Positions 43,847-47,487 of a stretch of DNA of 64,000 bases are shown here, one piece after another. A program made the position numbers and the translations under genes. The first letter of the stretch is position 1. Every line of letters starts with the position of its first letter. Source of the stretch: Longimicrobiales bacterium (GTDB lineage: Bacteria; Gemmatimonadota; Gemmatimonadetes; Longimicrobiales; Gaopeijiaceae); contig CBDBJW010000005.1 in assembly GCA_965206505.1 (NCBI GenBank), positions 567,596 through 631,595 of the forward strand, read 5' to 3'. The notes below the pieces were generated by a model that did not search any database, had not been told where the DNA came from, and saw only the letters and a list, made by a program, of their open reading frames with translations.

Positions 43847-46060
43847 ATGTACCGTGAAGTTTTCGTACCCATCGATAACTCGGACAACTCCCACTGGGCC
43901 GTCGACCGTGCCATCGAACTCTGTAAGCGCTCCGAGGGGCGGATCACAGGCAACCATGTCTACGCGGCGCGCCTTCACGATGTGCGATTTCGCCAATTGG
44001 AAACCGGACTTCCTGCCCAATTCCAATCCGCGAAGGAAATCAAGCGGCAGCGGAAGGTACACGACAAGCTGATCGAGAAGGGCCTCCAGCTCATATCGGA
44101 TTCCTTTCTCGATCAGACGGCAATCAGTTGTGAGGCGGCGGGTGTACCGCTGACCCGGCAGCTCCTCGAGGGCATCAACTATGAGGAGGTCTCTCGGGAG
44201 GCCAACCGAGGCGCCGGCCGCCTTCCCAGCCTGATCGGCTTCGACCCGAACATAGCGGACAAGTATGACGGGGGTGAGACGGTCCGTAGCGACGTCATCG
44301 TGGACGAGGACGGACGGATCATCGCAGAAGACGAGGAGCAGGATGAGAAGCTCGCCGGCTCGAGTGGTCGCGACTACGACCTCCTTGCCATCGGGGCGCA
44401 TGGGATCGGAAAACAACCGTATTCACAGTTGGGTGGAATGGTGTCGCGGGTCATCCGCCAGGTCGAAAAGGACACCCTGATCGTCAGGAACGATCGCGCG
44501 CTAGAGGGCGGTGACTGGATCGTGTGTGTCGACGGTTCCTCTTACTCGTACAAGGCCATGCGGCATGCCTTGGAGATGGCCAAGGAGTTCGGGGCGAAGC
44601 TTCATGTGTGCTCGGCCTTCGACGTGGAATACCACCACGCCGTGTTCGGGAACATCAAGGACATTCTCTCCGTGCAGGCCTCGAAGGTCTTCAAGTTCGA
44701 GGAGCAGGAAGAGCTCCACAACAACATCATCGACAAGGGTCTTCTGAAGTTGGCGCAGGCCAACCTCAAGCGGGCTGAGGTGATGACAGAGGAGTTCCCC
44801 GACGTCGAAGTCGAGACCCAGATCCTCATCGGTAAACCCTTCCAATGTATCCTCCAGTGGGTCGAGGAGATCGACCCGAGCCTTGTGATCCTCGCCCGCC
44901 ACGGCGGGCACCGGATCGAGGGTACGGACATGGGATCTCAGGCGGACAACCTGTGCCGCCTCTCGCCCACGAACATCCTGCTCATCGGCACCACCAACGT
45001 TCGCCCGGACGACATTCCCTGGATCGAAGAGGACGGGGAGACTGGGCTCGAGTGGGCGCCAGATGCCGAAGTCCGAATTCTTCGGGTGCCCCCGTTCGCA
45101 CTCGGGATCGCGCGCAAGGCCGTTGAAGAATTCGTGCTCGACAACTACGGCCCCGGGGCCAACGGCACGTACCGGGAAGAGGCGATCGTACAGGCGGCCG
45201 TGAACGGCGCCTCCACCAACGGTGCCTCGACCAACAACGTCGCCTCGAACATCGGCGCCTCGAGCAACGGCGCCCCGGCCAACGGGGAAGGGGCCAACGG
45301 CGAAAGAACGCCCCTCACCGAAGCCGAAGACGCCGCCGATGGCTCGCTTCCCGGTGCTTCGGTGCCCCCGCTCGGTGCAGGCGGTCTTCCGATGGTGACG
45401 GGCCCTCGCTTGGACGAGGCCATTACGAAGCTGCTTCCGACCCACATGCAGTTGATCATGGGCATCGGAACGGCCGAAGAGCTTGCCCTCGCCGAGGTGA
45501 AGGCCGAGGACGCGATGAAACGGACTTTGGTCAACGGCCTGGATGCCGACCCCCAGCCGGACGTCCCCATGATCTCCGCCACCTGCCCTTACAGCGGTCA
45601 TCCGCTCATGCGTGAACGGACGGCGGACGACCCGGTCGAGTGGACCCAGGAGGCCTTCGAGCGACTGAAGCTGGTGCCGTTGATCGCGAGGCCGCTGGCC
45701 CGCAACACGGTGGAGAGATTCGCCCGTGAGAACGAATTCTGGAGAGTTACCACACCGGTCATGGATGAAAACAAGCAGGCCATGATCGAGGCCGACGAAT
45801 TCGACATGGACACGATGTTGGTCATGTTCCGTGAACTTCAGACCAAGCAGATCAAGGCGGCGGCCGAGGGCATCGACGGCATGACCCCCGAGATGCGCAA
45901 GTTCATCGAAGAGGCCAAAGCCAGCGGCGTGACCCGCTGCCCGATTCGGGACGTGGCCGAGGCCACTGAGAACTGCCCGGTGGACATCAAGACCGTCTCG
46001 CCAGAGGACGCGAAGGCCGCGATCGAGAAATTCATGAGCAAGGAACCCAGCGAAGCGTGA
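43847..46060 (+). CDS. tandem universal-stress-protein (USP) domains + two PCP_red-like modules + Cys-containing C-terminal domain
   Basis: USP 1 (VFVPIDNSDNSHWAVDRAIEL...LLAIGAHG...GGMVSRVIRQ). USP 2 (WIVCVDGSSYSYKAMRHALEMA...LVILARHG...GSQADNLCR). PCP_red-like LEWAPDAEVRILRVPPFALGIARKAVEEF and VEWTQEAFERLKLVPLIARPLARNTVERFAREN. Asn/Gly/Ala/Ser-rich linker at about 45190-45310. Confidence 0.75.
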   Translation: MYREVFVPIDNSDNSHWAVDRAIELCKRSEGRITGNHVYAARLHDVRFRQLETGLPAQFQSAKEIKRQRKVHDKLIEKGLQLISDSFLDQTAISCEAAGVPLTRQLLEGINYEEVSREANRGAGRLPSLIGFDPNIADKYDGGETVRSDVIVDEDGRIIAEDEEQDEKLAGSSGRDYDLLAIGAHGIGKQPYSQLGGMVSRVIRQVEKDTLIVRNDRALEGGDWIVCVDGSSYSYKAMRHALEMAKEFGAKLHVCSAFDVEYHHAVFGNIKDILSVQASKVFKFEEQEELHNNIIDKGLLKLAQANLKRAEVMTEEFPDVEVETQILIGKPFQCILQWVEEIDPSLVILARHGGHRIEGTDMGSQADNLCRLSPTNILLIGTTNVRPDDIPWIEEDGETGLEWAPDAEVRILRVPPFALGIARKAVEEFVLDNYGPGANGTYREEAIVQAAVNGASTNGASTNNVASNIGASSNGAPANGEGANGERTPLTEAEDAADGSLPGASVPPLGAGGLPMVTGPRLDEAITKLLPTHMQLIMGIGTAEELALAEVKAEDAMKRTLVNGLDADPQPDVPMISATCPYSGHPLMRERTADDPVEWTQEAFERLKLVPLIARPLARNTVERFARENEFWRVTTPVMDENKQAMIEADEFDMDTMLVMFRELQTKQIKAAAEGIDGMTPEMRKFIEEAKASGVTRCPIRDVAEATENCPVDIKTVSPEDAKAAIEKFMSKEPSEA

Positions 46061-47487
46061 GCAGCGCAGCAGATCTCAGGTCCATGTCCTCTGCAACTCT
46101 GGCACCTCCCGCTCCGGAAGGGCTCGAGACGGTCGCGCCAAGCCGGGAGCGGGGTCCGTACACTCCGCATATCGTTGCGTGGAACCTCACGAAGCGATGT
46201 AACCTGGCGTGTGCGCACTGTTATATCTCGGCGGGTTCCTGGCATGTGGCCGACGATGAGCTCTCCACGGATCAATGCTTGCGCATCCTGGATGAGATTC
46301 TCGACGTGAACCCCAACCCCATGTTGATCCTTACTGGGGGAGAGCCCCTCCTTCGAGACGACCTGGAGGCCCTGGCAAAGCAAGCTTCTGCGGGGGGCGC
46401 CACGGTTGTGGTGGGAACCAACGGGACGCGCCTTAGCGGCGAGCGTATCGACTCCCTGTTGGAAGCCGGCGTTAAGGGTGTCGCGGTGAGTATCGACTCG
46501 CTGCGTCCCGAGTATCATGATCGGTTTCGGCACGGCGGGGGCGCACTCACGGACACGATGGCTGCGGTCGAGCGTTGCTCGGCTCGAAAGCTCGATTTTG
46601 TTATTCAGACGACCGTCACGTCCGGTAATCGGCACGAAATTGCAGATTTGGCTCGCTGGTCGGCCGAGGCGGGAGCCGTTTCCTTCAACGTCTACTTCGT
46701 GGTCCCGACCGGGCGCGCAGAACATATGCAGGGCATGAGTCCCGAAGAGAACGACGAAGTCCTTCGTGAGCTCGTCGAGCTGGAGGGGACCTATCGCGGC
46801 CGCATGATGGTCCGCTCGAAGTGCCAACCACAGATCATGAGGCACGTGGTCGGGGGTGATCCGGAGTCTCCCCTGCTGAACTATGAGACTCGCTGTCCCT
46901 GTGGTGTCCACTACGTGCGTATCACGCCTGAGGGCAAGGTCACGCCATGTCCTTATATGCCCGTGGTCGCGGGGGACCTGTTGACGCAGAGTTTTCAGGA
47001 AATCTGGGAGTCGTCGCCCGTCTTCACCAAGCTCAGAACAGGCGAGCTGGGCGGACGGTGCGGACGGTGCGAGTACCGCGAAGTGTGCGGAGGATGCCGC
47101 GCCCGCGCCTATGCCGACAACGGCGATTTTATGGGTCCGGATGATTCCTGCGCCTACGAGCCGTCCGGAGAGACACCCCTCATTGCGTCTCGCCGGCCGG
47201 TCTCCTACGGGCAATCAGTCCCAGATGGGCAGTCGGGCGCCGACCGCGGCGCCTCCATCGAGCAAACCCCATCGGTCGCCCTCGAGTGGACCCCGGAAGC
47301 GCTCGCCCGCATGGACAAAGTACCAAGCTTCGTTCGGGGAGTGGTCATACAAAGGGTCGAGAAGTTCGCCAATGACCGAGGCTACACATGCGTGGATGTG
47401 GAAGTCATGGAGGAGGTTCGTCGGAACCTCCCCGTGGATTTCTCCAAGAAACTTCCGTTCTTCTTGGGAAGAGGGGGAAGGGCATGA
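46057..47487 (+). CDS. radical SAM / SPASM enzyme of the NirJ/AhbC/AhbD (tetrapyrrole-modifying) type with a C-terminal PCP_red module
   Basis: CNLACAHCY cluster motif, [30 protein letters not shown]. SPASM end [36 protein letters not shown]. C-terminus [35 protein letters not shown]. Confidence 0.8.
   Translation: [476 protein letters not shown]

Follow-up and report, generated by a model that had tools for sequence, protein, structure and literature searches.

Why should a respiratory gene cluster carry its own haem-synthase-like enzyme? This question is raised by a stretch of 64,000 nucleotides (the window) from a Longimicrobiales bacterium of the phylum Gemmatimonadota (assembly GCA_965206505.1, contig CBDBJW010000005.1, positions 567,596 to 631,595 of the forward strand). 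At 46057..47487 it encodes a radical S-adenosylmethionine (SAM) enzyme with an unusual C-terminal PCP_red domain, followed directly by a gene for a membrane protein similar to CydA. Judged by sequence comparison, the enzyme represents a distinct, widespread branch of AhbD-like proteins; its partner is defined, and its favoured client is presumably a respiratory complex. We assign a probability of a little under one half (about 0.48) to the reading that it carries out AhbD-type chemistry on coproheme side chains and would supply haem to the co-encoded complex, rather than acting as a general haem b synthase.

The enzyme and its family

The enzyme, its domains and the gene product encoded immediately upstream are as follows.

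46057..47487, plus strand: radical SAM/SPASM enzyme with PCP_red tail, 476 amino acids (open reading frame, translation, Pfam/NCBIfam scores, rooted tree)
46183..46659, plus strand: Radical SAM core, residues 43-201, with CX3CX2C = C48/C52/C55 (PF04055, E 1.3e-26)
46894..47151, plus strand: SPASM/auxiliary Fe-S region, residues 280-365, with C335, C338, C344, C347 and C365 plus C280 and C298 (PF13186; alignment with AhbD)
47287..47421, plus strand: PCP_red domain of three helices, residues 411-455, homologous to the C-terminal end of BchB/ChlB (PF08369, E 1.7e-16)
43841..46060, plus strand: partner protein with tandem Usp domains and two PCP_red-like modules, 739 amino acids, its stop overlapping the enzyme start (Pfam Usp, PCP_red)

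Pfam detects three domains only in the enzyme, the SPASM match spanning residues 280-339 (E 8e-10). An initial annotation, made by eye from the letters of the window, had quoted a number of motifs, and all of them are found in the translation, among them CNLACAHCY (C48/C52/C55) and VPTGR. The PCP_red tail that it reported scores 60.4 bits against a Pfam gathering threshold of 32.5. The described coupling to the downstream gene is likewise correct: the stop codon TGA (47485-47487) shares bases with the CydA-like ATG at 47484, giving ATGA. On the other side, GTGA at 46057 combines the GTG start of the enzyme with the TGA that ends the preceding gene. Because residues 1-35 are not conserved among orthologues and are disordered in the structure model, the true start may be the ATG at 46084; a gap of 23 nt would then replace the upstream overlap.

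Radical SAM cysteines, the GGEP motif and all seven SPASM cysteines are invariant in 42 orthologues. The auxiliary motif C335-X2-C338-X5-C344-X2-C347-X17-C365 reads CX2CX5CX2CX17C, the motif quoted for AhbD by Layer and colleagues (PMC10114771). The AlphaFold model (pLDDT, the predicted local distance difference test, 73.8) places the tail helices at residues 413-419, 424-440 and 448-457. In the PDB the tail matches 2xdq_B (E 1.9e-6), 8vqi_B, 2ynm_D, 3aek_B and the stand-alone PCP_red proteins 2kru and 2l09; it aligns with BchB residues about 459-504 (E 1.9e-6). The fold search with the model returned generic SPASM enzymes only (PqqE, SkfB, SuiB, anSME, MoaA) and is silent on substrate. To our knowledge, no AhbD or NirJ structure exists for comparison.

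AhbD, the radical SAM haem b synthase, has been characterised from Methanosarcina barkeri and Desulfovibrio, and NirJ2 is presumably its counterpart in Firmicutes/Heliobacteria. Scored in bits against NCBIfam models, the enzyme reaches 285 with NirJ2 (TIGR04055; cut-off 500), 273 with AhbD (TIGR04545; cut-off 500), 255 with TIGR04053 (cut-off 395), 171 with NirJ (TIGR04051; cut-off 515) and 140 with AhbC (cut-off 650). Models of peptide maturases give at most 128 bits (WgkB 128, MftC 126, PqqE 104), their cut-offs unreached. For scale, true members score 533 bits (the NirJ2 protein P0177), 433-448 bits (TIGR04053 relatives) and 499.9-500.3 bits (AhbD of the Nitrospinota genome G301). The database names "heme b synthase" and "PQQ synthesis protein E" given to such genes are unsupported at equivalog level.

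Tail-bearing relatives from Brocadia and Nitrospinota share 41-44% amino acid identity with the enzyme; P0177, which lies above the NirJ2 cut-off, shares 37.5%, and an AhbC/NirJ1-like protein 27%. When 1.84 billion cluster representatives were searched exhaustively, one to three PCP_red tails were found in almost all of the closest clusters, which are at 40-63% identity. A maximum-likelihood tree was constructed from the catalytic core region only and rooted on an AhbC/NirJ1-like sequence. All 34 of 34 tail-bearing enzymes form a single clade (100/99, ultrafast bootstrap/SH-aLRT), which is sister to a clade of AhbD and TIGR04053 (100/99), with NirJ2 branching below both. A quick tree of 124 sequences displays the same split (SH-aLRT 99). 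The assignment to tetrapyrrole-type radical SAM enzymes, first proposed by eye, is thus borne out by the phylogenetic check, as model scores and tree both place the protein in the AhbD/NirJ2 branch and not with the peptide-modifying SPASM enzymes. It belongs to an AhbD-like family of its own, which lies within the haem-synthase-like radiation and outside AhbD proper. This is a fourth family, monophyletic among the sequences sampled, to join the AhbD/NirJ2/TIGR04053 radiation.

Conserved partner and respiratory context

A survey of 301 Gemmatimonadota genomes, mostly metagenome-assembled genomes (MAGs), identified a full-length orthologue (at least 54% identity) in 86 of them. The 86 genomes with a CydA-like gene are the identical set (Fisher p 1e-77), and the two genes nearly always have adjacent coordinates. 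The enzyme is missing from the other 215 genomes, and many complete single-contig genomes of the same family are devoid of both genes. One genome (G180) holds a 63%-identical fragment (residues 18-160), with no CydA-like gene detectable.

Gene order was determined in 80 related loci from named MAGs. The Usp-PCP_red gene lies directly upstream of the enzyme in 78 of 79 loci and the CydA-like gene directly downstream in 75 of 78; the exceptions are one locus with the CydA-like gene 0.9 kb off, one rearranged and one with an anomalous truncated copy. The upstream gene, which the initial annotation did not mention, is a conserved partner. In the MAG B89T1B8, a 92%-identical copy (L026) comprises residues 1-338 only and is not followed by a CydA-like gene, while the full locus is found on another contig of the same MAG (L022); this copy may be a misassembly, a result of strain mixing or a truncated duplicate.

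The tail family is also present in Nitrospinota and in anammox Brocadiales. In Nitrospinota the Usp-PCP_red gene is again located immediately upstream of the enzyme; in Brocadia the enzyme gene stands alone, with no Usp-PCP_red gene beside it. The tail enzyme occurs in 29 of 33 Nitrospinota genomes, 22 of which also carry an AhbD-like paralogue. The one paralogue scored, that of G301, comes out at the AhbD cut-off and adjoins an AhbC/NirJ1-like gene. Since the AhbD-like paralogue coexists with it in these 22 genomes, the tail family is not a replacement for AhbD. CydA-like genes are found in 27 of the 33 Nitrospinota (both genes in 26, enzyme only in 3, CydA-like only in 1, neither in 3; p = 0.014), a weak co-occurrence, as the genomes are related by phylogeny and their completeness is not known. 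One Nitrospinota genome (G319) has, on one strand, Usp-PCP_red, an enzyme with three tails, MoeA, a molybdoenzyme, a CydA-like protein and a dihaem cytochrome c. In another Nitrospinota locus (L096), the gene immediately ahead of the Usp-PCP_red/radical SAM pair matches DUF420 (PF04238) weakly; we take the DUF420 family to be CtaM, an aa3 oxidase assembly factor.

Eight further contexts contain relatives of the enzyme at 40-50% identity, with Usp-PCP_red upstream in seven. Five of them (L100, L104-L107) are clusters with CydA-like, cytochrome c and dihaem-c/EB_dh genes in varying orders, often with Mrp, the small PCP_red protein and ferredoxin included. One enzyme module follows an operon similar to alternative complex III (ACIII) and an HmuY-like gene, and two lie beside Aio-like molybdoenzyme and MauG-like genes. 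In the five clusters, as in L082 and L098, the module is accompanied by genes for CydA-like, cytochrome c and EB_dh proteins, the order of which is shuffled. The conserved unit is the enzyme together with Usp-PCP_red; the CydA-like/cytochrome c/EB_dh complex is its commonest companion, not its sole one. Genes of the HmuY-like family of haem-binding lipoproteins adjoin tail-family radical SAM genes in two unrelated metagenome contigs (L101, L105).

In the window, all genes of the cluster from ferredoxin to CoxA lie on the plus strand. Apart from the enzyme and its partner, they are as follows (counts refer to the 80 related loci).

39678..40061, plus strand: small [4Fe-4S] ferredoxin, candidate reductant for the radical SAM cluster (PF13370, E 7e-10; in 65/80 loci)
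40093..41043, plus strand: Mrp/NUBPL-type P-loop ATPase of the Fe-S cluster carrier family (PF10609, E 3e-69; in 69/80 loci, also in L105 and L107)
41040..41561, plus strand: small CxxC...CxxC (zinc-ribbon-like) protein with PCP_red end (PF08369, E 7e-13; in 71/80 loci)
between the small PCP_red gene and the Usp-PCP_red gene, plus strand: ABC ATPase, then ABC-2 permease (profile matches)
47484..49274, plus strand: CydA-like membrane protein of bd-like, OR-N type, lacking CxxCH and with some 14 hydrophobic segments (PF01654, E 1e-16; hydropathy)
49274..50695, plus strand: fusion of an ActD-like membrane domain with two cytochrome c domains, whose CxxCH motifs are at residues 274 and 398 (PF11821, PF00034, PF13442)
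50714..51514, plus strand: monohaem cytochrome c, CxxCH at residue 165 (PF13442)
51511..53139, plus strand: dihaem cytochrome c fused to an EB_dh (haem b) domain, with C-terminal anchor (PF09459, PF00034, TIGR03477)
53165..53944, plus strand: lipoprotein with CarboxypepD_reg-like domain; similar gene in L106 and L107 (PF13620)
54043..56609, plus strand: aa3-type haem-copper oxidase subunits II and I, CoxB and CoxA (TIGR02866, 150.6 bits against a cut-off of 147.7; PF00115, E 2.5e-145)

The two PCP_red-like modules of the Usp protein span residues 395-435 and 592-648. Altogether, four modules of PCP_red type are distributed over three neighbouring proteins (41040-46060 plus 47287-47421): one in the small zinc-ribbon protein, two in the Usp protein and one in the enzyme. 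Relatives of the enzyme have up to three such tails on the enzyme itself. The ABC-2 permease (42471-43335) is broken over two overlapping frames, 42471-43196 and 42898-43335, with a weak ABC2_membrane match in the second piece only, and the gene may be disrupted. ABC genes are found in just 34 of the 80 loci.

The predicted CydA-like protein fits the OR-N family of bd-like proteins, which lack the quinol site and whose N1 and N2 subfamilies have 14 helices (bioRxiv 10.1101/2021.01.16.426971). According to the Nitrospirales/Nitrospinota genome papers, the subunit composition and function of OR-N proteins are experimentally unconfirmed. Neither these papers nor the OR-N preprint mentions a radical SAM gene.

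Haem supply, proposed function and rival explanations

The source genome (4.94 Mb, 93% complete) was examined for its haem route. The window had been described as free of other ahb and nir genes, and this holds genome-wide: there is no AhbA/B/NirDLGH-type domain (no PF17805 match) and no second AhbC/AhbD/NirJ-like paralogue. The enzyme gene is the sole strong AhbD-like match, the next best radical SAM match being MoaA. The genome contains one ferrochelatase and one Chlor_dismutase-family (ChdC-like) gene, whose best models are H2O2-dependent haem synthases and which adjoins the haem O synthase gene. HemF and genuine HemN were not found in it. Since ferrochelatase and the ChdC-like protein are present and HemF/HemN and AhbA/B/C absent, the predicted gene set points to a coproporphyrin-dependent route. 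The initial annotation had reasoned that the enzyme would be an ordinary AhbD if the genome generally used the sirohaem-dependent Ahb pathway; with no AhbA/B and no AhbC/NirJ paralogue, this is not the case.

Genes of the ChdC family are commoner in the cluster genomes (79 of 86) than in the remaining ones (54 of 215). A search for HemF and HemN in 18 genomes (among them the 7 cluster genomes without ChdC, and relatives without both) found neither in any of them, a result that says little except that it agrees with a coproporphyrin route in the source genome. Six near-complete Gemmatimonadota genomes (G064, G071, G132, G133, G080, G161) are without ChdC, HemF, genuine HemN and the AhbD-like enzyme. 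The ChdC-like gene of the source genome (G000, contig C5, 315486-317000, L004) scores 120 bits with HemQ_actino (cut-off 235) and lies directly upstream of CtaB (haem O synthase). In many relatives of family f4, the ChdC-like gene follows the radical SAM gene at a distance of about 10 kb, immediately past the cox genes.

Carriers of the tail family make coproheme, via CpfC or AhbC. This availability supports coproheme as substrate, because ChdC is found in nearly all cluster genomes and an AhbC/AhbD pair in Nitrospinota carriers. AhbD homologues are known in coproporphyrin-route organisms without other AHB enzymes (PMC13564367, PMC10114771); the tailed family and its partners are not described in these reviews.

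What the enzyme acts on, which reaction it performs, that PCP_red modules mediate a complex and which protein is the client are all inferred from the evidence above, and the following mechanism may be proposed. The enzyme would work with the upstream Usp-PCP_red protein, here probably also with the zinc-ribbon-PCP_red protein, the Mrp-type Fe-S carrier ATPase and the ferredoxin. It would perform SAM-derived radical chemistry on the side chains of an iron-tetrapyrrole. The most probable reaction is that of AhbD, in which two coproheme propionates are oxidatively decarboxylated to vinyls, with coproheme presumably drawn from the coproporphyrin-dependent pathway of the organism. The ferredoxin could serve as reductant and the Mrp-like protein could load Fe-S clusters. 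By binding together the proteins or the tetrapyrrole, the PCP_red modules may allow haem to be handed on to the complex encoded downstream (CydA-like protein, cytochromes c, dihaem-c/EB_dh protein and aa3 oxidase). Parsimony favours such ordinary decarboxylation over a new haem modification, as the auxiliary motif matches that of AhbD exactly and the enzyme nests between lineages annotated as haem b synthases.

Several observations weigh against this proposal. Most cluster genomes already hold ChdC, and a second oxygen-independent haem b synthase would be redundant in the 22 Nitrospinota genomes with an AhbD-like paralogue. Identity to genuine AhbD is just 32-33%, to be set beside the 37.5% to NirJ2; NirJ and AhbC are equally close to each other, yet their chemistry differs. 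The family has motifs of its own that are unlike AhbD, such as WNLT..RCNL..HCY and QTTVT. Co-inheritance in Gemmatimonadota partly reflects one island that is gained or lost as a unit. Finally, the module is not always near CydA-like genes, as the ACIII-like and Aio-like/MauG contexts and the solitary gene of Brocadia illustrate. This last point also bears on the idea of the initial annotation that the modified tetrapyrrole is destined for the adjacent bd-like or EB_dh proteins. The tie to the cluster stands, supported by the identical sets of genomes, the adjacency of the genes and the recurrence in other phyla; the bd-like protein is not proven as specific client, because the module also occurs away from CydA-like genes.

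The best placed alternative, which we nevertheless regard as doubtful, is the one that the initial annotation had in mind: the enzyme makes a chemically distinct haem (e.g. a monovinyl or otherwise modified coproheme or haem b) as cofactor of the OR-N bd-like or EB_dh protein. It would account for the coexistence of terminal haem b enzymes (ChdC in cluster genomes, AhbD/AhbC in Nitrospinota), for the separate clade with its own conserved motifs, for the strict co-inheritance with the CydA-like/EB_dh cluster and for an accessory set that exceeds the needs of AhbD (Usp-PCP_red, small PCP_red protein, Mrp, ferredoxin). The auxiliary-cluster motif and the overall core are AhbD-like, however, and the module is also found alone and beside ACIII-like and Aio-like/MauG operons. 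Moreover, isoenzymes for a single haem step are common, and no unusual haem has been reported from carrier organisms. We know of no cofactor analysis of OR-N enzymes. In its boldest form, which we hold to be unlikely, the PCP_red enzyme and its partners would constitute a dedicated machine that branches at coproheme and both makes and inserts a new haem for OR-N bd-like/EB_dh complexes of Gemmatimonadota, Nitrospinota, anammox bacteria and others. If true, tetrapyrrole biosynthesis would gain a new terminal branch, and its product would be a haem of a new type.

Alternatively, the enzyme could be an AhbD that the coproporphyrin pathway has recruited as an isoenzyme of ChdC independent of oxygen, placed in the operon merely for low-oxygen co-regulation, with no specific link to the complex. 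It has been suggested that AhbD may replace ChdC anaerobically in coproporphyrin organisms without other AHB genes (PMC10114771, PMC13564367), and the Usp genes together with a putatively high-affinity bd-like oxidase would fit a low-oxygen regulon. Against this, the enzyme is present in 0 of the 54 ChdC-positive Gemmatimonadota genomes without the cluster, a pattern that one would not expect of a free-standing anaerobic substitute for ChdC. Another oxygen-independent AhbD coexists in Nitrospinota, and the conserved tail, the PCP_red partners and the overlapping stop and start codons suggest a complex. On balance, this explanation seems quite improbable.

Still less probable is that the protein, though descended from a haem synthase, now binds haem and delivers it to the membrane complex as a chaperone or insertase, without net catalysis. 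There is a precedent in HemW, which is derived from HemN/CgdH (PMC10114771). The PCP_red domain comes from a tetrapyrrole enzyme, an HmuY-like haem-binding protein is encoded beside two relatives, and the enzyme is redundant with ChdC or AhbD. The invariance of CX3CX2C, GGEP and the seven SPASM cysteines speaks for retained catalysis, a weak point given that HemW keeps its cluster too.

A SPASM maturase modifying a small precursor peptide or the CydA-like protein itself has very little in its favour beyond the facts that most SPASM enzymes modify peptides and that the fold matches PqqE, SkfB, SuiB and anSME. Peptide models stay at or below 128 bits against 273-285 for AhbD/NirJ2, and the enzyme nests in the AhbD/NirJ2 radiation. 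The flanking genes overlap it on both sides and leave no room for a precursor reading frame, and it has no RRE-type N-terminal domain. The maturase was rejected on model scores, tree position and gene overlaps. A housekeeping AhbD of the sirohaem-dependent pathway, as which some databases automatically name orthologues ("heme b synthase" or "AdoMet-dependent heme synthase"), is the least credible candidate and was rejected on genome content: the enzyme is not the housekeeping AhbD, because there is no AhbA/B and no AhbC in the genome (barring ahbABC in the missing 7%), its score is 273 bits against 500, it falls outside the AhbD clade, and the gene is missing from 215 of 301 genomes of the phylum.

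Comparison with known systems and minor observations

The enzyme shares with AhbD the radical SAM and SPASM architecture and the identical auxiliary spacing; the 339-position model aligns in full and the clades are sisters. Unlike AhbD, it has a PCP_red tail and a Usp-PCP_red neighbour, is found in a genome without AhbA/B/C and belongs to a family that coexists with true AhbD in Nitrospinota. NirJ2 is the top-scoring model and contains the above-cut-off member of highest identity; in contrast to the enzyme, which remains below its cut-off, NirJ2 is tail-less and more basal. NirJ and AhbC (haem d1 and sirohaem route, acting on didecarboxysirohaem) share a superfamily with the enzyme and likewise have tetrapyrrole side chains as their target. 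The enzyme scores far lower with their models, the genome is without NirDLGH/AhbAB, and an AhbC/NirJ1-like sequence is the outgroup of the tree. A NirJ-type haem d1 enzyme was rejected, with 171 bits against 515 and no NirDLGH-type domain in the genome (nirS was not searched for).

In dark-operative protochlorophyllide oxidoreductase (DPOR), the C-terminal PCP_red domain of BchB/ChlB contributes to the protochlorophyllide pocket of the partner half. The homologous tail of the enzyme differs in its setting, a respiratory and non-photosynthetic cluster in which it is joined to a radical SAM enzyme of haem type. PCP_red would thereby gain a role beyond chlorophyll synthesis; it might serve as an adaptor or bind tetrapyrroles. 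A genetic or physical tie between a radical SAM haem protein and a respiratory oxidase or reductase is seen elsewhere. In proteobacteria, hemN is located beside ccoNOQP/fixNOQP. HemW is tied to the respiratory reductase NarI (PMC10114771). Both differ from the present case in being of HemN/CgdH type, a radical SAM lineage unrelated to that of the enzyme.

Full-text searches of the literature yielded no description of the tailed radical SAM family. They likewise gave no paper in which bd-like oxidases are linked with a radical SAM gene, radical SAM enzymes with PCP_red, or anammox with AhbD haem synthesis. OR-N proteins are the presumed terminal oxidases of the globally important nitrite oxidisers Nitrospira and Nitrospina and are widespread elsewhere. 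A co-inherited, putatively haem-directed radical SAM module would provide an experimental handle on the question whether OR-N complexes use a special haem or need a dedicated oxygen-independent haem supply.

TIGR04053, a family of radical SAM/SPASM proteins, belongs to the same radiation as the enzyme and also occurs as a paralogue beside a Usp gene in some cluster-bearing Gemmatimonadota; it differs in forming a separate clade without PCP_red tail, and the enzyme reaches only 255 bits with its model against 395. Second, tail-less paralogues that are true TIGR04053 members (433-448 bits) were identified in four loci (L086-L088 and L090, from G041, G174, G068 and G270). That of G174 adjoins genes for a tandem-Usp protein, a CBS protein and a GAF histidine kinase. 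In two further loci (L032, L039), a complete cluster of Gemmatimonadota type is filed under MAGs named "Gammaproteobacteria bacterium", probably owing to a binning error.

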